Assembly (NCBI GenBank): GCA_030295235.1
Contig: AP026164.1
Span: forward strand, 992,001-1,056,000
Direction: 5' to 3'
From: Fistulifera solaris
Taxonomy: Eukaryota
DNA: 64,000 nt
The position numbers and the translations under genes were made by a program. Below are positions 37,753-54,023 of this stretch, one piece after another; position 1 is the stretch's first letter; every line of letters begins with the position of its first letter. Below the pieces are notes generated by a model. That model saw only the letters and a program-made list of their open reading frames with translations. It was not told the DNA's origin and searched no databases.

Positions 37753-38607
37753 TCATTCAACTTCGACTCCAGCGAAATATTCTTTTTTCTTTTTCGATTC
37801 TTCTTGATCCATCTTGCTTAAAGCTAGCTGCATTTCTCTATCGCTTGCCAGCTTGTCGCGCAACACCGCATTATCTCTGGAACGTGTAAGACCTTCTTTG
37901 ATATTATCCACGTTTCGTGAAAATTCATCCGTCCCCAAAAGACTACCCTCCCGGTCTGGATCCCAGCTCGTTGACATGACCGAATACGTAATGCCCTTTG
38001 AAGATAATGAAGCACAAGGATTAGTTGTTAGAATAAAGTACAGCAACCAAAACAATCCATTTTCGTCAAGCTATGCTCTCGACTTACAAGCAAGCCTAGC
38101 ACTAAAATGAGGATTGTTGACGCTGCTACAAGCGATGGCTCAAATGACATATACCGGTACGTCGCCATGTACCAAAAATCCGACGAATACACCCATACTA
38201 AGAAAGAGGGGAATCCCCACAAACGGAATCATTCGCTTTCCCATCCGCTGAGCCACCTTTTCCGGAATAGCCGCCGCTGCTTGCTGTACCTGCTTATCTT
38301 GTTGTAACACTTCGCGAGCTCGCTGCAGCTCGGCATTTTTCTGCTCCGCTCGTTCTCGGCGAATTTTCTCCAACGCCCTTTGACCAGCGTTCATTGCGGG
38401 GGCTGCTGGTTCTTCCCGCATGGGCTGGATAATTGGTGATGATGTCTCTATCTGAAGATTTTTCTCCCTTGTCTGCTTAGATTTCTTCTCTCCGGTATTG
38501 CCAAAGCCTTTCGCAGCATAACAGAAAGTAGGCGGAGGGGGGAGAGGAGACTGAGCAAGAAAAGACTCGACCGTCACAATTAAGAATGTAAAGGCAAAAA
38601 TCCTCAT
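37753..38607 (-). CDS. PAM68: PAM68-family photosystem II assembly protein
   Basis: IPEKVAQRMGKRMIPFVGIP, two TM segments, GITYSVMSTSWDPDREGSLLG; signal ...VES|F; intron 37996-38087; shift in the A run at about 38174-38178. Confidence 0.85.
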
Positions 38608-39517
38608 TATGGTTAACTTCCCCAGTTTGGTACGATATGGCTTAAAATGCAAGCTGCTACTGCTATATTCTCGAGACTGATGGCATTGAACTATTGTGTC
38701 AGGTTGCCGAGCAAAAGCCATACCTGTTAGATACAACGAAATTGATCTGAAGCCGTCAGGACGAAGTTCAACCGCGCACCGCGCACCTTACGCCTTGTGA
38801 AGAGCAGATGACAGACGAAACCGCAACCACGAAAACATCCCCATCCCTATCCCCACATCATCATGTTTGAGGAAACGTGTCGTGGACGCTACCGGGTACG
38901 TAGAATCTTGTACTAGGGGCAGAATTTTAACGTTCCGGTACAGTAACAGGCAACCGATGACGGACTCCTTTGCTTGGTTGATGTTCGTTGTTCATTCCCC
39001 TTCAACAGTTCTTACTACACTGGCATTTTCAAATTATTTTTCCTCCCCTTCCGTGATCTAATGATAATATAATATTATGATCTCCCACGTCCTACGTAGT
39101 ACTGTACCTGGTACCTGGTACTGCAGCTGAGAGATATAGAGGTCCGATCTACTTTGCGTAGAAGTGTTAAATTTTATAGCACATTAAGTTTCGTATCAAT
39201 TCTACAGTATGAAAGTAAAAATAGATTCTTTATCCGGAGTGGCTAATTCGATCCGAGCAACGGAAAGGTATTACGAATGATTCGATCTAAATAACCTTCC
39301 CAAATTTTCCATGCGGTTTTAAATCCAAGATTCTACTAACAAATTTAGCCACGTCGTTGTACCGGATCGATTTTTTGCTCTCTTTTGTGGTCTTCTTTTA
39401 AGTCATTGTCATTGATCACTTGCAATTACAATTTGCTGAAGGTATGTTCATGTTTTCGCTTCTTGGTGTCATCAGCTTAGCAATATTTTGCTTACACTCC
39501 GTGTCTTTTACCTGTAG

Positions 39518-40750
39518 ATGAAGTATACACCCCTCAAAACCGCTGCTCTTTCGCTGGTCGTCTGCGCCATCATTGGAGGATCCCTCCACGCAGCTGGAAA
39601 GTTTCACACCGCTCCTGCTAGCTCGGCTAACGAGGCATCTTTTGTCGAGCGTGACTTGAGCCGTGTTGCGGACCGCGTTCGTCACAATCGCCACAACCGT
39701 CACAATCGTCACGACCGCGATCACGGACACGATGATGAAGAGCCAGTTGTTAGCTCCGGAAAGGGCAAGAAGAGTGGTAAGGGCAAGCGAAGCCTCGAGG
39801 AAGAGGAGCGCGACTTGAGCCGTGTTGCGGACCGCGTTCGTCACAATCGCCACAACCGTCACAATCGTCACGACCGCGATCACGGACACGACGATGAAGA
39901 GCCAGTTGTTAGCTCCGGAAAGGGCAAGAAGAGTGGTAAGGGCAAGCGAAGCCTCGAGGAAGAGGAGCGCGACTTGAGCCGTGTTGCGGACCGCGTTCGT
40001 CACAATCGCCACAACCGTCACAATCGTCACGACCGCGATCACGGACACGACGATGAAGAGCCAGTTGTTAGCTCCGGAAAGGGCAAGAAGAGTGGTAAGG
40101 GCAAGCGAAGCCTCGAGGAAGAGGAGCGCGACTTGAGCCGTGTTGCGGACCGCGTTCGTCACAATCGCCACAACCGTCACAATCGTCACGACCGCGATCA
40201 CGGACACGACGATGAAGAGCCAGTTGTTAGCTCCGGAAAGGGCAAGAAGAGTGGTAAGGGCAAGCGAAGCCTCGAGGAAGAGGAGCGCGACTTGAGCCGT
40301 GTTGCGGACCGCGTTCGTCACAATCGCCACAACCGTCACAATCGTCACGACCGCGATCACGGACACGATGATGAAGAGCCAGTTGTTAGCTCCGGAAAGG
40401 GCAAGAAGAGTGGTAAGGGCAAGCGAAGCCTCGAGGAGGAGGAGCGCGACTTGAGCCGTGTTGCGGACCGCGTTCGTCACAATCGCCACAACCGTCACAA
40501 TCGTCACGACCGCGATCACGGACACGACGATGAAGAGCCAGTTGTTAGCTCCGGAAAGGGCAAGAAGAGTGGTAAGGGCAAGCGAAGCCTCGAGGAAGAG
40601 GAGCGCGACTTGAGCCGTGTTGCGGACCGCGTTCGTCACAATCGCCACAACCGTCACAATCGTCACGACCGCGATCACGGACACGATGATGAAGAGCCAG
40701 TTGTTAGCTCCGGAAAGGGCAAGAAGAGTGGTAAGGGTAAAAGAGACTAA
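39518..40750 (+). CDS. Secreted repetitive polyprotein A (silaffin-like): 7 x 53-aa His/Arg/Asp-rich + KXXK units with RXL sites
   Basis: Signal-like MKYTPLKTAALSLVVCAIIGGSLHA; unit RDLSRVADRVRHNRHNRHNRHDRDHGHDDEEPVVSSGKGKKSGKGKRSLEEEE; intact 410-aa ORF. Confidence 0.85.
   Translation: MKYTPLKTAALSLVVCAIIGGSLHAAGKFHTAPASSANEASFVERDLSRVADRVRHNRHNRHNRHDRDHGHDDEEPVVSSGKGKKSGKGKRSLEEEERDLSRVADRVRHNRHNRHNRHDRDHGHDDEEPVVSSGKGKKSGKGKRSLEEEERDLSRVADRVRHNRHNRHNRHDRDHGHDDEEPVVSSGKGKKSGKGKRSLEEEERDLSRVADRVRHNRHNRHNRHDRDHGHDDEEPVVSSGKGKKSGKGKRSLEEEERDLSRVADRVRHNRHNRHNRHDRDHGHDDEEPVVSSGKGKKSGKGKRSLEEEERDLSRVADRVRHNRHNRHNRHDRDHGHDDEEPVVSSGKGKKSGKGKRSLEEEERDLSRVADRVRHNRHNRHNRHDRDHGHDDEEPVVSSGKGKKSGKGKRD
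39650..40741 (+). repeat. 159-bp coding tandem repeat, about 7 copies
   Basis: cgcgacttgagccgtgttgcggacc recurs every 159 nt; only a few synonymous differences between copies. Confidence 0.95.
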
Positions 40751-41570
40751 TGTTAGATTGGTGGTGTGTTTGCACGAGGCACTATGAATAGATAACTATT
40801 CATAATCACACATCCTTATTTTAGTTGAATGTGGCGCCATTGAAAAACATTGATAGATCCCTAACTTTGAACGGTGAGTCTTGTTGAAATAAGGGATGCT
40901 AAAACATGAAAATTTTCTAGACCTAGACCCTAGTTAAAATATATATTATGATGAAAAACTTTTCCTATCCACAATGATCAATGATGGCGCCTGTAACAAA
41001 AAGCATTAAAAAGTCGGAGTATCAAAACGATCCCTCATTTCGTGACAGAAACTGCCAGTCGTCTTACTGCTTGTTGTTGATGTATGACCGCATGATTAAC
41101 TATAGGTTTTAGTAGTGGGTCTCTTGGAACTGGGCTCCCTCTAGCTAGGGAGTCCGGAGTCCGTCAAACCATCACCGGTCACCGGTCTAGATCGAGGGTG
41201 GCAAACCGCAAATAGGAAATAGGGCAAAGTCAAAGTGCATGTCATTGGTCATCGGCAAATAAGTCAGTCATCCTCAGTCGTCAGTCAATCGTCATGCCGC
41301 TTTTGTTTTTGGCCGCGATGTACTTGTAACTTGTACGCAACTACCACATTTGTCAAAACAACTCGGACGCCTATGATGACAAACATATGGATTTTTTATC
41401 AGGGATCATGACTGCCCTAGCTTGTTTCTCACTCACATCTCACATGCGCATCGGTATTCAGTCTTTAAGTCAAATTAATCATTACACAGTCACATACGTT
41501 TTACCAGCTACCGGTACCAGGTACCGGTACCAGCAAACCTTGACTTAAACTTTCAGCTTTCAGGGAAGGA

Positions 41571-41635
41571 CGTTAAAATTCTGCCTCCCAGTACAAGATT
41601 CTACCTAGCGTCTACGACGAGGCAGAATTTTAACG
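41571..41635. repeat. 17-bp perfect inverted repeat with 31-nt spacer
   Basis: cgttaaaattctgcctc (41571-41587) and gaggcagaattttaacg (41619-41635). Confidence 0.85.
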
Positions 41636-42200
41636 CCGTTCCCACCGAGAGAAGATAACGACGTTGACCATTGACCACAGTCACTTCAGCACTTTTAAGT
41701 CTGAGAGTTTAGAGTGGCTTTGTACGTCATAGTCATTGTCATGTATCATCAACATTCTTTCAAAAATTAGAAGCAGAAACCGAAGCTTGAATCTTTGTCA
41801 TACAGTAAAGCGGAGTGTGTCTGAGCAAAATTGGTGTTGACTGCGACAAATTGATTGAGGTATAAAGAATGTAACGGAAATTTATGCATGTGGCAACATA
41901 AGTGTTCATCGTGTGTGTCGTGTTTTGAAAGTCAATTGGGGATTTCTAAACAATATTGGCAGGTTGCTGCCTAACGGTTCGAATTATTGGCGTCTCGATG
42001 ATTCGTGCACATTATTTTGCTGTTCAACACAATCTTCTTTTTACAATCATTTGCACAAATCACAATTAATCGATAAGATACAAAGAAGATCTATCAATTG
42101 CACCTTTCTCGAATCGAAGGTAGGTAATCGAAGCGGTGCTAGATGTCCATGAGAAATCATTCCTGATACCGCAATGTCCTCTTTTCTACTGATATGAAAG

Positions 42201-44126
42201 ATGAAATACAATGCTACAAAAACTGCTGTTGGGTCGCTTGTGCTGCTGGCTATCATCGGTGGATCTATCCGCGCTAGTAACCGGTTAAGCTTGTCTTCAA
42301 CCCAAGAAGTAAGCGATGAGTCAGGTCGTACACTTAGCCGCCTTGGAAGTCGCTTTCACAACCGTCATCACGGACACCACGATGAGGAGCCGGAGATCAG
42401 TTCGGGCAAGGGCAAGAAGACCGGAAAGGCCGGAAAGGGAAAGCGCAATCTTGAGGAAGAGGACCGCGATCTAGGCCGCCTGAAAGACTTCATGCACCGC
42501 GACCATGGAGACCACGGCGATCACGGACACCACGATGAGGAGCCGGAGGTCAGTTCGGGCAAGGGCAAGAAGACCGGAAAGGCCGGAAAGGGAAAGCGCA
42601 ATCTTGAGGAAGAGGACCGCGATCTAGGCCGCCTGAAAGACTTCATGCACCGCGACCATGGAGACCACGGCGATCACGGACACCACGATGAGGAGCCGGA
42701 GGTCAGTTCGGGCAAGGGCAAGAAGACCGGAAAGGCCGGAAAGGGAAAGCGCAATCTTGAGGAAGAGGACCGCGATCTAGGCCGCCTGAAAGACTTCATG
42801 CACCGCGACCATGGAGACCACGGCGATCACGGACACCACGATGAGGAGCCGGAGGTCAGTTCGGGCAAGGGCAAGAAGACCGGAAAGGCCGGAAAGGGAA
42901 AGCGCAATCTTGAGGAAGAGGACCGCGATCTAGGCCGCCTGAAAGACTTCATGCACCGCGACCATGGAGACCACGGCGATCACGGACACCACGATGAGGA
43001 GCCGGAGGTCAGTTCGGGCAAGGGCAAGAAGACCGGAAAGGCCGGAAAGGGAAAGCGCAATCTTGAGGAAGAGGACCGCGATCTAGGCCGCCTGAAAGAC
43101 TTCATGCACCGCGACCATGGAGACCACGGCGATCACGGACACCACGATGAGGAGCCGGAGGTCAGTTCGGGCAAGGGCAAGAAGACCGGAAAGGCCGGAA
43201 AGGGAAAGCGCAATCTTGAGGAAGAGGACCGCGATCTAGGCCGCCTGAAAGACTTCATGCACCGCGACCATGGAGACCACGGCGATCACGGACACCACGA
43301 TGAGGAGCCGGAGGTCAGTTCGGGCAAGGGCAAGAAGACCGGAAAGGCCGGAAAGGGAAAGCGCAATCTTGAGGAAGAGGACCGCGATCTAGGCCGCCTG
43401 AAAGACTTCATGCACCGCGACCATGGAGACCACGGCGATCACGGACACCACGATGAGGAGCCGGAGATCAGTTCGGGCAAGGGCAAGAAGACCGGAAAGG
43501 CCGGAAAGGGAAAGCGCAATCTTGAGGAAGAGGACCGCGATCTAGGCCGCCTGAAAGACTTCATGCACCGCGACCATGGAGACCACGGCGATCACGGACA
43601 CCACGATGAGGAGCCGGAGGTCAGTTCGGGCAAGGGCAAGAAGACCGGAAAGGCCGGAAAGGGAAAGCGCAATCTTGAGGAAGAGGACCGCGATCTAGGC
43701 CGCCTGAAAGACTTCATGCACCGCGACCATGGAGACCACGGCGATCACGGACACCACGATGAGGAGCCGGAGGTCAGTTCGGGCAAGGGCAAGAAGACCG
43801 GAAAGGCCGGAAAGGGAAAGCGCAATCTTGAGGAAGAGGACCGCGATCTAGGCCGCCTGAAAGACTTCATGCACCGCGACCATGGAGACCACGGCGATCA
43901 CGGACACCACGATGAGGAGCCGGAGGTCAGTTCGGGCAAGGGCAAGAAGACCGGAAAGGCCGGAAAGGGAAAGCGCAATCTTGAGGAAGAGGACCGCGAT
44001 CTAGGCCGCCTGAAAGACTTCATGCACCGCGACCATGGAGACCACGGCGATCACGGACACCACGATGAGGAGCCGGAGGTCAGTTCGGGCAAGGGCAAGA
44101 AGAGCGGAAAGGGCAAAAGAGACTAA
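42201..44126 (+). CDS. Secreted repetitive polyprotein B (paralog of A): 1 variant + 11 x 51-aa His/Asp/Gly-rich + KXXK units with RXL sites
   Basis: Signal-like MKYNATKTAVGSLVLLAIIGGSIRA; unit RDLGRLKDFMHRDHGDHGDHGHHDEEPEVSSGKGKKTGKAGKGKRNLEEED; ends in the same KGKKSGKGKRD* as gene A. Confidence 0.85.
   Translation: MKYNATKTAVGSLVLLAIIGGSIRASNRLSLSSTQEVSDESGRTLSRLGSRFHNRHHGHHDEEPEISSGKGKKTGKAGKGKRNLEEEDRDLGRLKDFMHRDHGDHGDHGHHDEEPEVSSGKGKKTGKAGKGKRNLEEEDRDLGRLKDFMHRDHGDHGDHGHHDEEPEVSSGKGKKTGKAGKGKRNLEEEDRDLGRLKDFMHRDHGDHGDHGHHDEEPEVSSGKGKKTGKAGKGKRNLEEEDRDLGRLKDFMHRDHGDHGDHGHHDEEPEVSSGKGKKTGKAGKGKRNLEEEDRDLGRLKDFMHRDHGDHGDHGHHDEEPEVSSGKGKKTGKAGKGKRNLEEEDRDLGRLKDFMHRDHGDHGDHGHHDEEPEVSSGKGKKTGKAGKGKRNLEEEDRDLGRLKDFMHRDHGDHGDHGHHDEEPEISSGKGKKTGKAGKGKRNLEEEDRDLGRLKDFMHRDHGDHGDHGHHDEEPEVSSGKGKKTGKAGKGKRNLEEEDRDLGRLKDFMHRDHGDHGDHGHHDEEPEVSSGKGKKTGKAGKGKRNLEEEDRDLGRLKDFMHRDHGDHGDHGHHDEEPEVSSGKGKKTGKAGKGKRNLEEEDRDLGRLKDFMHRDHGDHGDHGHHDEEPEVSSGKGKKSGKGKRD
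42368..44103 (+). repeat. 153-bp coding tandem repeat, about 11.3 copies
   Basis: gaccgcgatctaggccgcctgaaagacttc recurs every 153 nt. Confidence 0.95.
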
Positions 44127-44740: not shown

Positions 44741-46390
44741 ATGGCACTCGCTTCGAAGCGCAACAATGCCTCCAGCATGGAGAGAATCGTTGGCCTGTCG
44801 TTGCTGATATTGCTCGGTCTTTATTGCATGCTGACTGTCTTTGCGTATTACAAAGTATCACAATCGGACCCTGGTTTACCTCTAGTGCAATCTACTTTTG
44901 TGACTGCCGCTTCCTCAAACGAAGTGCCTTATCAACGGCAAATGGTTGCAGATACGAATAAAATTTCTAGCATCAGCGAACTGCAGAATGCTTTTCCGAT
45001 TTACGTCGGCAAGGACGTGGAAACAATCATTCATCCCGGAGTACAAGTCTTGTCGCCTACCGCCCTTACAAAATGGCCCGACGATCTCCCGAAAAATATG
45101 TCAGTACCGCAGTTTTTCGACGATTCTCATGGTCACTTGTACGGTGGGTCCATCCGCGAATTCTTGGGGAATAATGGCGAAAAACTCATCACACCGGAAC
45201 AGGCCGCAAAGATAGGCAGTAAAATAACTGTTAGAGGTAAAGAAGTGGAAACGATTTATTGTTCCGTGGCTTCTTATCGCGATCCGGAATGCTCCGGGAC
45301 CGTGGCGGACGTCTTTGAACGAGCGGAATACCCGGAACGAATTCGTGTTGCCATTTTGGACCAACGAGCCGAAGGTGACCCAGTATGCGGTGCTGCCGAT
45401 TGCGACGCAGACCCGAATCAGACGCTTTGCAAGTATGCCCATCTGATCGAACACACGTCTTTGGACGCTCGTCTCTCGTGCGGTCCGGTATTTGCTCGCC
45501 ATTTGGCTCACCGTCACTATCGAGGTGAATACTTCGCTATGCAGATCGACTCACATGTACGCTTCATTGAAAACTGGGACAGTAAGATTGTCGGATTTTG
45601 GCATTCTGCGAACAACGAAATGGCTGTTCTCACTACGTATCTTTCTGACATAAATGGCTCGATCGACCCGATTACTCACGAATCTCTGCACAAAACTCGC
45701 CCTATCATGTGCGCATCCGATTATGAAGGTAATGGCGAATATAGACATCTGCGACACGGCCAACAGCCTGAAGGTATTCCCATGATTAAAGGAGAACCAA
45801 CGTTAGAGCCTTTCTGGGCGGCCGGGTTTTCATTTTCTCGCGGTCATTTTGTCATCCAGGTCCCTTATGATATGTATCTGCCCATGGTATTTCAAGGCGA
45901 AGAAATCAGCATCGGGCTGCGTGGATTTACTTTCGGGTACGATTATTACACCCCTGAGGAAGGTGTGTGCTTCCATATGTATGCAATCAAAGAAAATGAA
46001 GCGAAGAGGAAGAAAGTTCCTTTGTTTTGGGAGAATAGTTCAATGTACACCGGAGTCGGAATGAAAGCGATGCGCCGATTAAACACAATAATTGGGATGG
46101 AAAACTACCCACGAGATCAATGGCAGACTGACGAAGAGGAGAAATATGGCCTGGGAAAAGTTCGGACCACGCGAAAATTCTTCGACGTGTTTGGCATTCA
46201 TCCCGAGAAGCACACGGTTGAGCAACATTTATGTCGTTTTGTGGGCCAGCCAATGATGAAAGAATTGAAACCGCATTTACGTTCAGATCGCATGGGTATC
46301 GACTACGATTCTGTCACATATCGCTACGTGGACACCGGCTCAGTCAACAACAAACACATTCCAGTAGGTGTGAAGAAGGCTGCGGCATAA
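44741..46390 (+). CDS. GT60/Gnt1-like polypeptide GlcNAc transferase, type II membrane protein
   Basis: TIYCSVASYRDPEC, GPVFARHLA, YRGEYFAMQIDSHVRF, FWAAGFSFSRGH, VPYD...FQGEE; N-terminal TM IVGLSLLILLGLYCMLTVFAYY. Confidence 0.88.
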   Translation: MALASKRNNASSMERIVGLSLLILLGLYCMLTVFAYYKVSQSDPGLPLVQSTFVTAASSNEVPYQRQMVADTNKISSISELQNAFPIYVGKDVETIIHPGVQVLSPTALTKWPDDLPKNMSVPQFFDDSHGHLYGGSIREFLGNNGEKLITPEQAAKIGSKITVRGKEVETIYCSVASYRDPECSGTVADVFERAEYPERIRVAILDQRAEGDPVCGAADCDADPNQTLCKYAHLIEHTSLDARLSCGPVFARHLAHRHYRGEYFAMQIDSHVRFIENWDSKIVGFWHSANNEMAVLTTYLSDINGSIDPITHESLHKTRPIMCASDYEGNGEYRHLRHGQQPEGIPMIKGEPTLEPFWAAGFSFSRGHFVIQVPYDMYLPMVFQGEEISIGLRGFTFGYDYYTPEEGVCFHMYAIKENEAKRKKVPLFWENSSMYTGVGMKAMRRLNTIIGMENYPRDQWQTDEEEKYGLGKVRTTRKFFDVFGIHPEKHTVEQHLCRFVGQPMMKELKPHLRSDRMGIDYDSVTYRYVDTGSVNNKHIPVGVKKAAA

Positions 46391-46426: not shown

Positions 46427-47937
46427 TCAGTCGGCAGTTCGTAATGTTTTCCAGATTCCTGTTTTGCTTTCATACCGCATCATGCCTAATGCAACCTGTA
46501 CCCCCATAAAGGCTGCCAGAGCGTACCATATTTGTCCAAGGCTCACAGTTGCTCCATTGGCGGCAAGTAAAGTAATCATTCCAACACAAACAACATTCGC
46601 CACCCACATGGCTGTCATACTGAAGACCCAGTCCAGCCCTCCCATGAGAATTCCGTTTACGGGGTACGCAAGTCCTTTTAACACTTGTGTCAGTAAGACT
46701 GCCGGGAAAACTGCCAAGGCTGCTTGCTGGACGGCAATGTTCGTTGTCAGGCCTTTTAAAACGTTGGCACGCCCAAACCAAGTGAATAGAGACAATGTGG
46801 TGGCCACGACACCTCCAAAAATTGTTGAAGAGTTAATCAAATGTCGAACGAGTTCTCGCTTAGGTTTCTTTTGCGAAATTTGACGAGCCATGAGCGTTTG
46901 AACTGCCACAGCCACTGCTTCACATATTTGGGTTGTCGCAAAACCCAATTGAAACGTAAGATTATAAGCAGCTGCCGGTACCGTACCCAATAGGGCTGCT
47001 TGACGGGAACATACGGAATAGGCCAAGACTTTTGCGACCGTGCGGAACATAACAAGGCCGCCCGCTTTCAAGTACTGTTGCAAAGACGTCTTAAGCTGTG
47101 CAAATTGTTTGACAATGTTGATTGGTACTTTTCGATTGAGCGAAAGCATGAGAGGCACCAAGGCAATGTATTGAGCTAGTGCCGTCCCTGCTGCCGCCCC
47201 AGCCGCCCCCAACCAGCAACGAATATAAAGAAGGGATCGAAAACAACATTGAGGAGCGTGAATAGGAGGCTGTAAATCAGAGGCGTCCGTGTATCCCCTA
47301 ACCCACGAAAGATTCCATTGGTGACAAGCCAAAGTGTCGCGGCTGGCGTTCCCAGGGCCCGCACCTGTAAATACGAGACTGCCGAGAACCACATGGGGGA
47401 CGCTGGACCAACACCCATACCTTGCGTGATGGCTCGAGCAAAGAGGAAGAAAACTAACATTTGAATGATCCCGACACTCCCAGCCAGCAACAACGCACTG
47501 CTTACCGCCAAGCTTTGATTCTCATCTTCGGATGACGCCGCTACCAAACTGATACTAGTGCGAAGTAAGGGATCGTTGTAGAGTTTGCTGACGGCATATT
47601 GTGCACTGACAGCGACCCCGGCTCCACCCAAAATCGCTGGACTGAGTCGGCCCAAATAAGCCGTGTCAACAATTGCCGCCAAGGGCTCTGCGGCAAGTTG
47701 CAGCAAAGCGGGTACACCAATTTTGAGAAAATCTTTCGTCAATTCTTTCTTTTCTTGAGCAAGTGCGCTGTGATCTGAATCGTCTTGAGCGGTTGCAATC
47801 GAGGTTGTCAAGAGACTCCTGGACGGCAAAGGCTGGTGCAAGCTCTTGTAACGAATCAGAGTCGTTCTTCTCAAGGAGGGAACATACGATTGCTGTAGCG
47901 ATGGCAATAACAGAAAGATCAATGAAACGAATAGCAT
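46427..47937 (-). CDS. MATE-family transporter with N-terminal presequence
   Basis: AAEPLAAIVDTAYLGRL, GIFRGLGDTRTPL, GAAGAAAGTALAQY; two ORFs joined by a shift near 47200-47215. Confidence 0.9.
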
Positions 47938-48238: not shown

Positions 48239-49881
48239 TTACAAAGCAATGAATACGATTCCAATCCCGAGAGCAGCAATGAATGAATTTAACACCTGCT
48301 GCAAGGCAAAGGAACCCCCTCTTCGTTTACTGGAACTGAACTAGGCTCGTCCGAAGCAGGCTGAGGGGCTGTTGGTTCTCCTGTAGTACCTTCAATTGGC
48401 TCCGTAGTGGGGACAGTAGCGCTAGGAGAAGTAAGATCAGATGTTGGAGCCGGAGTAACAGCAATTGTAGGAGTGGGTCCACTCGTTTCAGGATCCGAAG
48501 AAGAGAACGAAGGAAAGTCCGAGGTCATGGTCACCGCAGGCGAGGGAAAGTCCGAGACGCCAGTGCTATCGGAACTGGGCGCCATCGTTGCGGGCTGTGT
48601 ACTTGGATCGCGTGTTGCGCCTTGCTGTTGAGGAACGACAGTAATCGGAGTGTCCACCATAAAATTCGAGGTCCAAAAGTCTGTAGCGGCATGCGATAGT
48701 CCTGGCTCAGCAGTAGATCCCTCGGGAATTCCAGGATTAATCACCCGACCCTCAAATATTGGTAATTCGTTATGCAGAATCCAGAATTGGAACGGTCTGT
48801 CTAGTTGCATTAATGCAGGCGCCGTGGGTTCAGGAAGTGATTCGACAACACCAATGGCAGTTACAGCAGCAGCTTCGACGCCTTCCTCATTCACGTCAAT
48901 GACAGTCTTTTGAATGATGAAATCAATGAAGGCGCCACATGATCCCTCACGCACACATAAACCACCCACGAACGGAGCGCGCAAGTTCAGATTTTGCAGA
49001 GCCGTTTCGAGGCTGGACTCGTATGTTGATTCGAACTTGAACTTGGGAAGGGCCAATGCAACTCGTGTAATACTGAGCTGGGGCATCGCCGTCACCAATT
49101 CAGCCGCTGAGAGTGATGGAAGTTCGCCTTCGACGAGAGAAGCAGCAAAGACCATGGACAACCCTTGAGTCGTCTCACTGCCACCGAAGAACTCCATTTT
49201 CACTATTTGATAGTTCGTAACAGCAGTATCGGAATACGGGAGGAACTCTACCTTGTGCATAAAATGAGCATCTGTTCCAGCAAAGCTATCCAGTGTTGTT
49301 TGAAAAGCCACAAAAGGAAGTCTCCATGCTGCTTTCAAGTAAATGGAGTTCACAGCAAGAATAATCCATCCCGGATTGACCTCCTGAACAACAGAATCAA
49401 TGAGTCCATTGGTACTATTCGAAACCCATGCGTTGATTGTGTCGGCCGCTGTAGGGTCGCTGAAATCAATGGGTTGTACAAAATCTTGTACCACTGCTTG
49501 GTACGTGGAATTCAACGCGACGTTGTTGTTGGCGTATATACGATTGGCGATGCTGACCACTGGATCTTGAAACTCACAGCTTTCACCATCGTAACAGGCT
49601 CCCTGATACAGCGTCGACACTTCATTCCCAGCCCAATGTAACTTGGGTTCGCTAAAGCCAAACACCGACTCCATCTCCGTCTTGGATTCTCCGATAGCGC
49701 TGGTGTACAATAAATCAAACGCCATCGAAATTCCCAACGAAGAGGTACAATCATTCGTCTCTTCCGAGTACATTTCCGCCGAAAGATTATCACTGAAGGT
49801 GATCAGTTGCTCTGCCACCGACCCACGAGCATAGTGGTTGGTGAAAATACTCAAGATAAGGATAGAGCGGTCGAACTTCAT
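48239..49881 (-). CDS. Secreted serpin with Ser/Thr/Pro-rich stalk and probable hydrophobic C-terminus
   Basis: INAWVSNSTNGLI, LAVNSIYLKAAW, LPKFKFES, IQKTVIDVNEEGVEAAAVT, LDRPFQFWI, IFEGRVINP; as assembled the stop is at 48289, but a 1-nt correction extends the frame to 48239. Confidence 0.9.
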
Positions 49882-52485: not shown

Positions 52486-53822
52486 ATGTCTACCTTTCTA
52501 TTTACTTCCGAAAGTGTCAACGAAGGACACCCTGGTACGTTTGTAGTTTCTTTTTCACCGTCGTCGAAATTACGGTGGACAACGTTCTCCTTTCGGCGAT
52601 CGCGTGCTCCGCATTGGCGTTCTTTTTGTCATTGCTTTTCTTTGAAACAGCCTTTTTCTCATACAATTGTTACTGTTCTTTCCTTCCTTCCATTCCTGCT
52701 TATGGATCTTCATTAGACAAGTTCTGTGACCAGGTCTCCGATGCCGTCTTGGATGCTTGCATTGCCGGTGACGAGATGTCTCGTGTTGCCTGTGAGACCT
52801 GCTGCAAGACCGGAATGGTCATGATCTTTGGTGAAATCACTACTTCCTCGACTGTCAACTACGAACAAGTTATCCGCGATGCCATCAAGGATATCGGATA
52901 CGATGATCCGGCCAAGGGCTTTGATTACAAGACCTGCAACGTCATTGTTGCCATTGAGGAACAGTCGCCCGACATTGCCCAGTCCGTTGATGCCGTCAAG
53001 CCCGAGGATATTGGTGCCGGTGATCAGGGTATCATGTTCGGTTACGCCACGGATGAGACCCCGGAACTCATGCCCTTGACGCACGTCTTGGCCACCCAAA
53101 TCGGCGCCAAACTCACGGAGGTGCGCAAGAACGGAACCTGCGACTGGGTCCGCCCCGACGGAAAGACCCAAGTCACCTGCGAATACAAGTTGGTCGACGG
53201 TGTCCCCGTTCCCCAGCGTGTCCACACGATTGTCATCTCCACGCAGCATTCGGAAGATGTCACCAACGATCAGATCAAGGCCGACTTGATGGAACACGTC
53301 ATCAAACCCGTCGTCCCCGAAAAGTACTTGGATGACAACACTATCTACCACTTGAACCCCTCGGGCCGATTCGTCATCGGAGGACCTCACGGAGATGCCG
53401 GTTTGACGGGCCGAAAGATCATTATTGACACCTACGGTGGTTGGGGAGCACACGGTGGTGGTGCTTTCTCTGGAAAGGACACCACTAAGGTCGATCGTTC
53501 GGCCGCGTACGCCGCTCGTTGGGTCGCCAAATCCCTCGTTCACGCCAAATTGTGCAAACGTGCCTTGGTGCAATTGAGTTACGCCATTGGTGTCCCTTAC
53601 CCCTTGTCCATCTTCGTTGACTCGTACGGAACGGTCAAGGAAGGCATGACCGATGCCGACTTGACGGAAGTCATCAAGAAGAACTTTGACTTGCGACCGG
53701 GATGTATCATTCGCGATTTGAACTTGCGTCGCCCCTTTATGCGCAAAACGGCCGCCTACGGACACTTTGGACGAGATGACCCTGATTTCACATGGGAACA
53801 GCCCAAGGACTTGAACCTTTAA
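52486..53822 (+). CDS. MAT: S-adenosylmethionine synthetase
   Basis: [22 protein letters not shown] across intron 52535-52716; [24 protein letters not shown]; strong codon bias. Confidence 0.98.
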
Positions 53823-54023
53823 GTTTGCAATCATATAGTCGAACCATTATTATAATTACTACTGCTGTTTCGGCGAACTAGTATTGCTGTTAAAAAAGTA
53901 GCGTCGTAACAAAGGCTCGTACGGAGTACGTAGTATTTCAGATAGGAAATTGCTGGGACTCATCAACAATTTGCGATGTTGTAAGTGACGCCTGTTGTGC
54001 TTAATACTATTTACAGACTTCTT

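Follow-up and report, generated by a model that had tools for sequence, protein, structure and literature searches.

It is known that Sil1p of the diatom Cylindrotheca fusiformis carries a signal peptide, an Arg-X-Leu (RXL) motif after it and seven lysine-cluster repeats, which end in RRIL or RRNL and are later trimmed, and that cleavage of these seven repeats yields silaffin-1A and silaffin-1B (PMC4557024). RXL is regarded as a general processing motif of silaffins, silacidins, cingulins and frustulins, and the silaffins of Thalassiosira pseudonana and C. fusiformis show no sequence resemblance to each other (PMC4557024). The cluster that targets proteins to silica, the pentalysine cluster, consists of five lysines within 12-14 residues (PMC5501833, PMC9650480). 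We analyzed a stretch of 64,000 nucleotides from the raphid pennate diatom Fistulifera solaris (assembly GCA_030295235.1, contig AP026164.1, positions 992,001 to 1,056,000 of the forward strand), which is referred to here as the window and to which all positions refer. Positions 39518-44126 of its plus strand hold two open reading frames (ORFs), ORF1 and ORF2, whose products combine a signal-peptide-like N-terminus, a short propeptide closed by RXL and an array of tandem units, each with a histidine block and a lysine cluster. We tentatively read them as silaffin-type precursors.

ORF1 and ORF2 are the two ORFs of this span that begin with ATG and reach at least 80 amino acids. The coding sequence of ORF1 (39518..40750, +) specifies 410 amino acids plus a stop and contains seven His/Lys peptide units; that of ORF2 (42201..44126, +) specifies 641 amino acids plus a stop and contains twelve. 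Tandem Repeats Finder delimited the ORF1 array at 39647..40737 (+; 159-bp period, 6.9 copies, 99% identical, score 2147) and the ORF2 array at 42367..44112 (+; 153-bp period, 11.4 copies, 99% identical, score 3471). The repeats are far beyond chance, neither array has indels, both periods are multiples of three (53 and 51 codons), and neither array is open in another frame or on the other strand. A first-pass annotation, made from the letters of the window, had described two adjacent same-strand paralogs with related signal peptides. This was confirmed: AIIGGS is common to both signal peptides, both C-termini read SSGKGKKSGKGKRD, and ORF1 and ORF2 are a tandem pair of same-strand paralogs. A six-frame motif scan of the 64-kb window found no further members of the family.

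When ORF1 was cut after each R(S/N)L, it separated into a head of 93 amino acids (signal peptide, propeptide and unit 1), five stretches of 53 amino acids and a last unit of 53; ORF2 separated into a head of 84 amino acids, ten stretches of 51 and a last unit of 48. The counts of seven and twelve units given by the first-pass annotation were thereby borne out, and so was the order that it had read in them, which is present in all units of both proteins: RDL, histidine block, DEEP-xx-SS, GKGKK(S/T)GK(AGK)GK, R(S/N)L and EEE(E/D). Its peptide size of about 40 residues needs a slight correction: the RDL-to-R(S/N)L stretch is 46 amino acids in ORF1 and 44 in ORF2, and the first ORF2 unit is a shorter variant of 39 amino acids.

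At the start of each unit histidine recurs at every third residue, a spacing common to the paralogs, while the intervening residues differ (HNRHNRHNRH in ORF1, HRDHGDHGDHGHH in ORF2); HxxH occurs 21 times in ORF1 and 47 times in ORF2. The lysine cluster is found in 7/7 and 12/12 units, with five lysines in nine residues in ORF1 and six in 12 in ORF2. Strict K[SG][SG]K occurs seven times in ORF1, once per unit, and once in ORF2. There are 13 RXL motifs in ORF1 and 23 in ORF2. KR(S/N)L closes 6 of the 7 units of ORF1 and 11 of the 12 of ORF2, and a KR dibasic site is present near the end of every unit. The acidic spacer EEE(E/D)RDL comprises seven residues, none of them serine, with a calculated net charge of about -4. 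For the 46-amino-acid ORF1 unit the calculated net charge is +12 at pH 5 and +5.5 at pH 8, and for the 44-amino-acid ORF2 unit +8 and +1.5, respectively.

Because the unit copies are near-identical, the seven and twelve units are not independent evidence for this order of motifs. The independent witnesses are ORF1, ORF2, a 73-amino-acid homolog (P0002) and variant copies present in contigs of public sequencing runs. RXL precedes the first histidine block in all three family members (RDL in ORF1, RTL in ORF2 and RRL in P0002), and RXL positions are also kept between the paralogs and in a variant copy, where RNL is replaced by RSL. The last ORF2 unit has a lysine block of the ORF1 type, which suggests that each array has been homogenized internally by concerted evolution and that an older state is kept at the end.

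Both ORFs are real coding genes under purifying selection. All unit-to-unit DNA differences within ORF1 are silent, and a single difference, Val/Ile, recurs between the units of ORF2. Contigs of public runs were aligned to 40580-42520, a stretch picked so that each gene contributes one unit only. In the last ORF1 unit all nine variant letters listed are synonymous third positions, 13 further differences of the stretch not being listed. In the ORF2 head six of the 13 differences listed are synonymous and seven are replacements; these include RNL to RSL and KTGK to KSGK, and motif classes, RXL among them, are retained. Codon choice is strongly skewed to AAG, CAC and GAG. Lysine is encoded by AAG in 36/38 cases in ORF1 and 70/84 in ORF2, compared with 99/229 in seven neighboring ORFs, and histidine by CAC in 44/44 and 59/71, compared with 52/110. 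The GC content of third codon positions is 0.60 in ORF1 and 0.68 in ORF2, against 0.45-0.51 in neighbors. As these codons are taken from repeated copies, the counts are not independent.

The junction between ORF1 units is bridged by contigs of the runs X1, X3 and X5, in which the match "goes back 158"; these are three runs from two studies. X5, a freshwater metatranscriptome, contributed 184-nt contigs across the junction, one of them with one other letter in 108. Contigs of RNA libraries thus carry the unit, with the caveat that such libraries can contain DNA. Over the intergenic positions 40775-41554 no cover was seen in X2 and X3, and X1 covers all 30 bins. This pattern, which we did not count as evidence, points to RNA in X2 and X3 and to DNA in X1. 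Word depth over the units was 485-1626 in X2 and 533-830 in X3, values that were used neither as expression level nor as copy number.

The same contigs bear on gene structure. An intron of 81 nt in the 5′ untranslated region (5′UTR) of ORF2 (42120..42200, +; GTAGGT...AAAG) abuts the ATG and was located from the sequence together with X2 and X1 contigs. An X2 contig of 231 nt, derived from a variant copy, fits 42199-42361 and then continues in 68 loose letters, the break lying exactly at the intron acceptor. Judged by eye, the last 30 letters of this loose end start like 42100-42110 (one difference), have 12 extra letters midway and finish like the last bases of exon 1 (one difference). An X1 contig of this variant copy, which has the nine differences listed between 42257 and 42318 in common with it, continues through the intron. 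Comparison of the two contigs suggests that the 5′UTR intron is spliced in a second copy of ORF2. A parallel 5′UTR intron of 76 nt that abuts the ATG (39442..39517, +; GTATGT...TGTAG) is predicted for ORF1 from its sequence. Each gene would then have its intron in the 5′UTR only, and the predicted spliced forms have no upstream in-frame ATG. Separately, loose ends of X2 and X3 contigs at 40671 and 40728 share part of the ORF1 unit and then pass into other His-rich and Gly-Lys-Ser-rich sequence, a hint that there are more expressed paralogs, or subgenome copies, whose units are of other kinds. The diverged copy pairs among the run contigs fit the allodiploid genome of F. solaris.

The regions upstream of ORF1 and ORF2 do not align above chance, and we therefore claim no shared promoter motif. 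An 81-bp element lies at 41563-41643, approximately 560 bp upstream of ORF2, with inverted arms of 25 nt (41563-41587 and 41619-41643) that are 92% complementary. Its word depth in X1 is about 18,650, compared with 14.5 in the flanks, so that it looks like a very abundant repeat of this genome resembling a miniature inverted-repeat transposable element. A partial copy, one arm plus the loop, is found near 38916-38990, approximately 585 bp upstream of ORF1.

ORF1 and ORF2 are absent as exact sequences from a collection of 15 billion proteins. An exhaustive phmmer search of ORF1 against 1.84 billion representative proteins gave three matches, P0001, P0002 and P0003. P0001 is a 43-amino-acid fragment that resembles the ORF1 C-terminus minus one HNR, and its cluster mate P0004 (46 amino acids, JGI-sourced) equals that C-terminus. 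P0002 (73 amino acids, from an NCBI contig of 47.7 kb) is 45% identical and has the same kind of signal peptide; its propeptide is poorly conserved but closes with RRL, and a GHGHDRDHGHH-DDEEE block follows. P0003 is an unrelated repeat protein and was rejected. Word-index protein searches found no relative of near length for ORF1, only P0001 among shorter proteins for ORF2, and none among longer proteins with profile A1. The ESM Atlas gave no usable match for ORF2 and, for the neighboring DXS product, bacterial clusters only, which were of no taxonomic use; no match was found among Protein Data Bank sequences. A metagenome contig scan with profile A1 returned 600 pattern-matching stretches, none of which was confirmed, and a degenerate DNA pattern of EEP-xx-SS-GKGKK returned seven loci, all seven of them chance matches in unrelated frames. 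Pfam matches of ORF1/ORF2 to Lambda_CIII, DUF4599 and EIAV_Rev were repeat-driven, with no significant stretch, and were taken as spurious. The first-pass annotation had left room for membership of a characterized family; in the searches run, no described silica protein or Pfam family proved to be related. Judged by these searches, the family is real but very narrow in current data. Although the assembly is otherwise annotated, its public annotation appears to have passed over both genes: their products are absent from a protein collection in which the product of the adjacent gene, a GlcNAc (N-acetylglucosamine) transferase, is present, drawn from NCBI nr, UniRef and EukProt.

The sole hydrophobic stretch in both proteins comprises residues 9-20. 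In an 11-residue window the Kyte-Doolittle maximum is 2.92 for ORF1 and 2.84 for ORF2, in both cases at residue 9, and past residue 40 values are at most -0.07 and -0.56, respectively. By hydropathy alone, an N-terminal signal peptide for the endoplasmic reticulum is predicted in both proteins. It would occupy residues 1-25, encoded by 39518..39592 (+) in ORF1 and 42201..42275 (+) in ORF2, with putative cleavage after ...SLHA and ...SIRA, which places Ala at -1 and A or S at +1. The propeptides would then extend over residues 26-47 of ORF1 (39593..39658, +), with the first RDL at the end, and residues 26-45 of ORF2 (42276..42335, +), with RTL at the end. A high-confidence prediction of diatom plastid targeting demands F, Y, W or L at +1 (PMC12136025). 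A plastid route is unlikely here because the residue is A or S. Past the signal peptide neither protein contains Cys, Tyr, Trp, an N-glycosylation sequon or a second hydrophobic segment. Serine accounts for 9.5% of ORF1 and 5.5% of ORF2, and proline for 2.2% and 1.9%. An AlphaFold2 single-sequence model of the first 146 residues, a weak model with a predicted template modeling score (pTM) of 0.24, has no compact fold; in it the acidic spacer, RDL and the histidine ladder are helical (predicted local distance difference test, pLDDT, 74-86) and the lysine block is disordered.

The order of parts agrees with that of Sil1p. In both cases a pennate diatom is the host, a signal peptide is followed by a short pro-region closed by RXL and by tandem units (seven in Sil1p and seven in ORF1), each unit has a Ser-Ser/Gly/Lys cluster, each mature peptide would have one cluster of about five lysines, and the unit ends in a basic residue followed by R-X-L (RRIL/RRNL in Sil1p, KRSL/KRNL here). 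Unlike Sil1p, with which no homology was detectable, the units are two to three times longer and contain an N-terminal histidine ladder and an acidic hinge, serine is scarce, and a second RXL (RDL) follows the acidic spacer. The lysine clusters also resemble the pentalysine clusters and KXXK motifs described for T. pseudonana silaffins, cingulins and silaffin-like proteins: at least five lysines lie within 12-14 residues, RXL is present, and the lysines are interspersed with G, S, T or A. They differ from those proteins in that strict K[SG][SG]K is rare in ORF2 and in the lack of cingulin-type Trp/Tyr domains and PT repeats. The alternation of KXXK with Trp/Tyr-rich regions by which cingulins are described is not seen, as there is no Tyr or Trp past the signal peptide. 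Like ORF1 and ORF2, the silacidin precursor of T. pseudonana is highly repetitive and is thought to be cut at RXL into many charged peptides (PMC4557024). Silacidins are described as acidic, Ser-rich and phosphorylated, whereas here only the seven-residue EEE(E/D)RDL spacer is acidic. The silaffin analogy drawn in the first-pass annotation therefore holds for the Sil1p-like build, the kept RXL positions and the clusters of five to six lysines; it does not extend to serine content, to K[SG][SG]K in ORF2, where it occurs once, or to sequence, in which the searches run found no relationship.

On this comparison we favor the view that ORF1 and ORF2 are lineage-specific silaffin-type precursors, an explanation that is plausible while still somewhat short of probable. 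Of the silaffin features, RXL-ended tandem units and an RXL after the signal peptide are present, and a pentalysine cluster is found in every unit, with strict K[SG][SG]K once per unit in ORF1 but a single time in all of ORF2. The protein would enter the endoplasmic reticulum by its N-terminal signal peptide, and a diatom RXL-directed endoprotease would cut it in the secretory pathway or the silica deposition vesicle. We envisage cuts behind the RXL of the propeptide, behind the KR(S/N)L at the end of each unit and perhaps also behind the RDL that follows the EEE(E/D) spacer, giving seven and twelve copies of a peptide of approximately 44-46 amino acids. In each peptide a predicted helical HxxH ladder would be followed by an acidic DEEP hinge and by five to six lysines clustered as in silaffins. 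The lysine cluster would serve in silica targeting and as the site of methyl or polyamine modification, and the peptide's own Asp/Glu, instead of phosphoserine, would provide the internal anion. Through its histidines the peptide would change its net charge with pH, so that assembly and silica precipitation would be favored in an acidic vesicle. Secretion, cleavage, lysine modification and a role in silica are what we infer for these products from the order of motifs.

A number of observations weigh against a silaffin-type precursor. The proteins are not rich in serine or hydroxy amino acids (9.5% and 5.5% Ser), and these contents are well below the threshold usual in screens for silaffin-like proteins. 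The protein and profile searches run gave no similarity to a known silaffin, and no relationship to any silica protein or Pfam family was found in them; similarity is not a strict criterion for silaffins, because those of T. pseudonana and C. fusiformis are dissimilar too. Strict K[SG][SG]K occurs only once in ORF2. RXL is a motif of three residues and the units are copies, so that the effective sample amounts to three sequences together with the variant copies. As the family is almost absent from the 1.84 billion representatives, it does not belong to a silica machinery conserved among diatoms. The KR site in each unit makes a Kex2/furin-type route fit equally well, and HxxH ladders are classically associated with metal binding. 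The model puts the RDL site within a helix (pLDDT 74-86), a weak point against cleavage there, and the +1 residue rule is compatible with periplastidial targeting.

The histidine block has a counterpart outside diatoms. Siliplant1 (Slp1) of Sorghum bicolor is a secreted protein with seven repeats, each with a His/Asp block (consensus DXFHKXHDYHXXXXHFH) and then a Lys-rich block; RXL occurs at three of the repeats, Slp1 peptides precipitate silica, and its authors liken the His/Asp part to sponge glassin (bioRxiv 10.1101/518332). In Slp1, as here, histidines spaced three apart stand directly ahead of a Lys-rich block and RXL is found at repeat ends, a likeness of build only. Slp1 is described as a plant protein with 20% Pro, a Pro/Thr/Tyr domain and a KKPXPXKPKPXPKPXPXPX repeat; ORF1 and ORF2 have about 2% Pro and no sequence relationship to it. 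The first-pass annotation had not recognized the combination of a His block with a silaffin-type Lys block from described silaffins. No described diatom His-rich RXL polyprotein was found in the open-access papers searched. Outside diatoms, Slp1 is a non-homologous precedent.

A more specific form of the silaffin-type reading is possible but doubtful. The products may form a class of biosilica peptides new to diatoms, "histidine-switch silaffins", which would be cut at RXL and owe their zwitterionic character to Asp/Glu of their own instead of phosphoserine. Their helical HxxH ladder would switch the net charge between the acidic silica deposition vesicle and the pH of seawater and so gate self-assembly and silica precipitation. 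If this is true, the His/Asp-Lys-RXL logic would have arisen independently in a diatom, in a grass (Siliplant1) and, as regards the His/Asp part, in a glass sponge (glassin), and a rule of design common to silica-forming peptides would be indicated.

The same ladder could instead serve in metal binding outside the cell, which we consider unlikely. The HxxH motifs together with Asp/Glu of a secreted or cell-surface protein would chelate Zn, Cu, Ni, Co or Fe, by which the cell could acquire these metals, buffer them or render them harmless, and the lysine block would do no more than anchor the product in the anionic wall or the mucilage. This would account for the three-residue spacing of histidines, which is kept between the paralogs while other residues change, and for the numbers of HxxH motifs (21 and 47); the predicted helical ladder would align the histidines on one face, and P0002 also carries the GHGHDRDHGHH block. 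It would leave unexplained RXL/KR at both borders of the unit, the acidic spacer and the most conserved block, the silaffin-type lysine cluster. In addition, His/Asp blocks are described from the silica proteins Siliplant1 and glassin too.

Cleavage at the KR site, rather than at RXL, would be expected of precursors of bioactive peptides, and this alternative we regard as improbable. Here a Kex2/furin-type protease would cut, exopeptidases would trim the spacer, and the cationic His-rich peptides would pass into the medium and have an antimicrobial (histatin-like) or a signaling or pheromone role. Fungal KEX2-processed repeat proteins (KEPs) and alpha-factor have a signal peptide, identical peptides, KR and short acidic spacers (PMC6339444), and ORF1 and ORF2 share with them the signal peptide, the repeated peptides flanked by KR and the acidic spacers. 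The strong positive charge (+5.5 to +12 for the ORF1 unit) points the same way, and the narrow taxonomic range would suit fast-evolving defense or mating peptides. In contrast to KEPs, described from fungi only and as short unmodified peptides, KR is here followed by S/N-L-E-E, and the STE13 signature XA/XP is absent. For pheromones, units of 44-46 amino acids that contain an acidic hinge would be long, and the documented diatom processing motif for such precursors is RXL.

Quite improbable, too, is an unprocessed, disordered protein of the matrix or wall (organic casing, mucilage or adhesive) that would be held by its KG-rich blocks and have no silica-forming role. AC3362 of the raphid diatom Amphora coffeaeformis is a cell-wall protein with KG repeats that was found in the fluoride-insoluble organic matrix (PMC4220933). 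It has in common with ORF1 and ORF2 a raphid pennate host, a signal peptide and Lys-Gly dipeptide repeats, and its association with biosilica was established by experiment. Unlike them, AC3362 is rich in Tyr, lacks a His block and does not consist of identical polyprotein units, and searches gave no similarity. The lack of a compact fold in the model and of Cys, Tyr and Trp past the signal peptide would suit a matrix protein. RXL kept at unit borders and after the propeptide speaks against it, and the concerted homogenization of whole units argues for the unit as the functional entity.

It is most improbable that the proteins are not secreted (staying in the periplastidial or another endomembrane compartment) or that the arrays are an assembly artefact or non-coding: the +1 rule would allow periplastidial targeting and short contigs cannot verify the number of 99%-identical units, but contigs of three runs, from two studies, span the junction between units, P0004 equals the ORF1 C-terminus, variation in the last ORF1 unit is synonymous only among the differences listed, and one frame is open.

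Most knowledge of silaffin chemistry stems from two species, and diatom genomes commonly contain silaffin-like candidates that are confined to one lineage. To our knowledge, clean peptide-polyprotein precursors have been described for very few diatom silica components, namely Sil1p and the silacidins. What appears to be new here is an apparently unannotated, lineage-restricted pair with a putative, unusually clean silaffin-type polyprotein build to which a histidine block is added. A second pennate example with different chemistry would be testable, as genetic transformation of the host has been reported. If silaffin-type precursors are indeed encoded, built-in carboxylates plus a pH-titratable His block can replace phosphoserine, and silica proteins of diatoms, plants and sponges would be linked by convergence. 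Proteomic searches on existing gene models could not find these proteins, since they are absent from public collections in which the next-door gene is present; in addition, Lys/Arg-rich and possibly modified units would be poorly visible after trypsin digestion. If the products instead bind metals or are bioactive, no RXL/KR polyprotein of that kind would have been described in a diatom before.

The surrounding ORFs have Pfam matches to myosin, M17 aminopeptidase, phytoene/squalene synthase, ALG6/8, PHD-finger, serpin, MatE, DXS and PAM68, a set that marks the window as nuclear DNA of a photosynthetic eukaryote. Directly downstream of the pair, the GlcNAc transferase (44741..46390, +; 549 amino acids, PF11397, 2e-59) has an N-terminal segment resembling a membrane anchor, and its product is identical in 538/549 positions (98%) to F. 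solaris GAX17074.1, encoded on another contig, which places the window in F. solaris or a very near relative. Two adjacent ORFs of the minus strand (46427-47149 and 47176-47937) each match part of the MatE profile and are probably the two parts of a single MATE transporter gene, interrupted by a short intron or a change of frame. A serpin-family ORF (48289-49881, minus strand; 530 amino acids, PF00079, 1.5e-56) lies 4 kb from the pair; it is of interest solely because we know of no diatom RXL protease system. Long ORFs overlap at 52713-53834 (minus strand) and 52776-53822 (plus strand), the former being without a Pfam match and compositionally odd (Gly/Asp/Val-rich). On the other side of the pair, the ORF of a PAM68/DUF3464 homolog (38140-38721, minus strand; 1.6e-12) starts 38 residues ahead of an internal Met, which may be the true start of the gene. 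The hydrophobic stretch after this Met ends in ...VESF-LAQSP and resembles the bipartite plastid presequences of diatoms, with the Phe placed at the junction.

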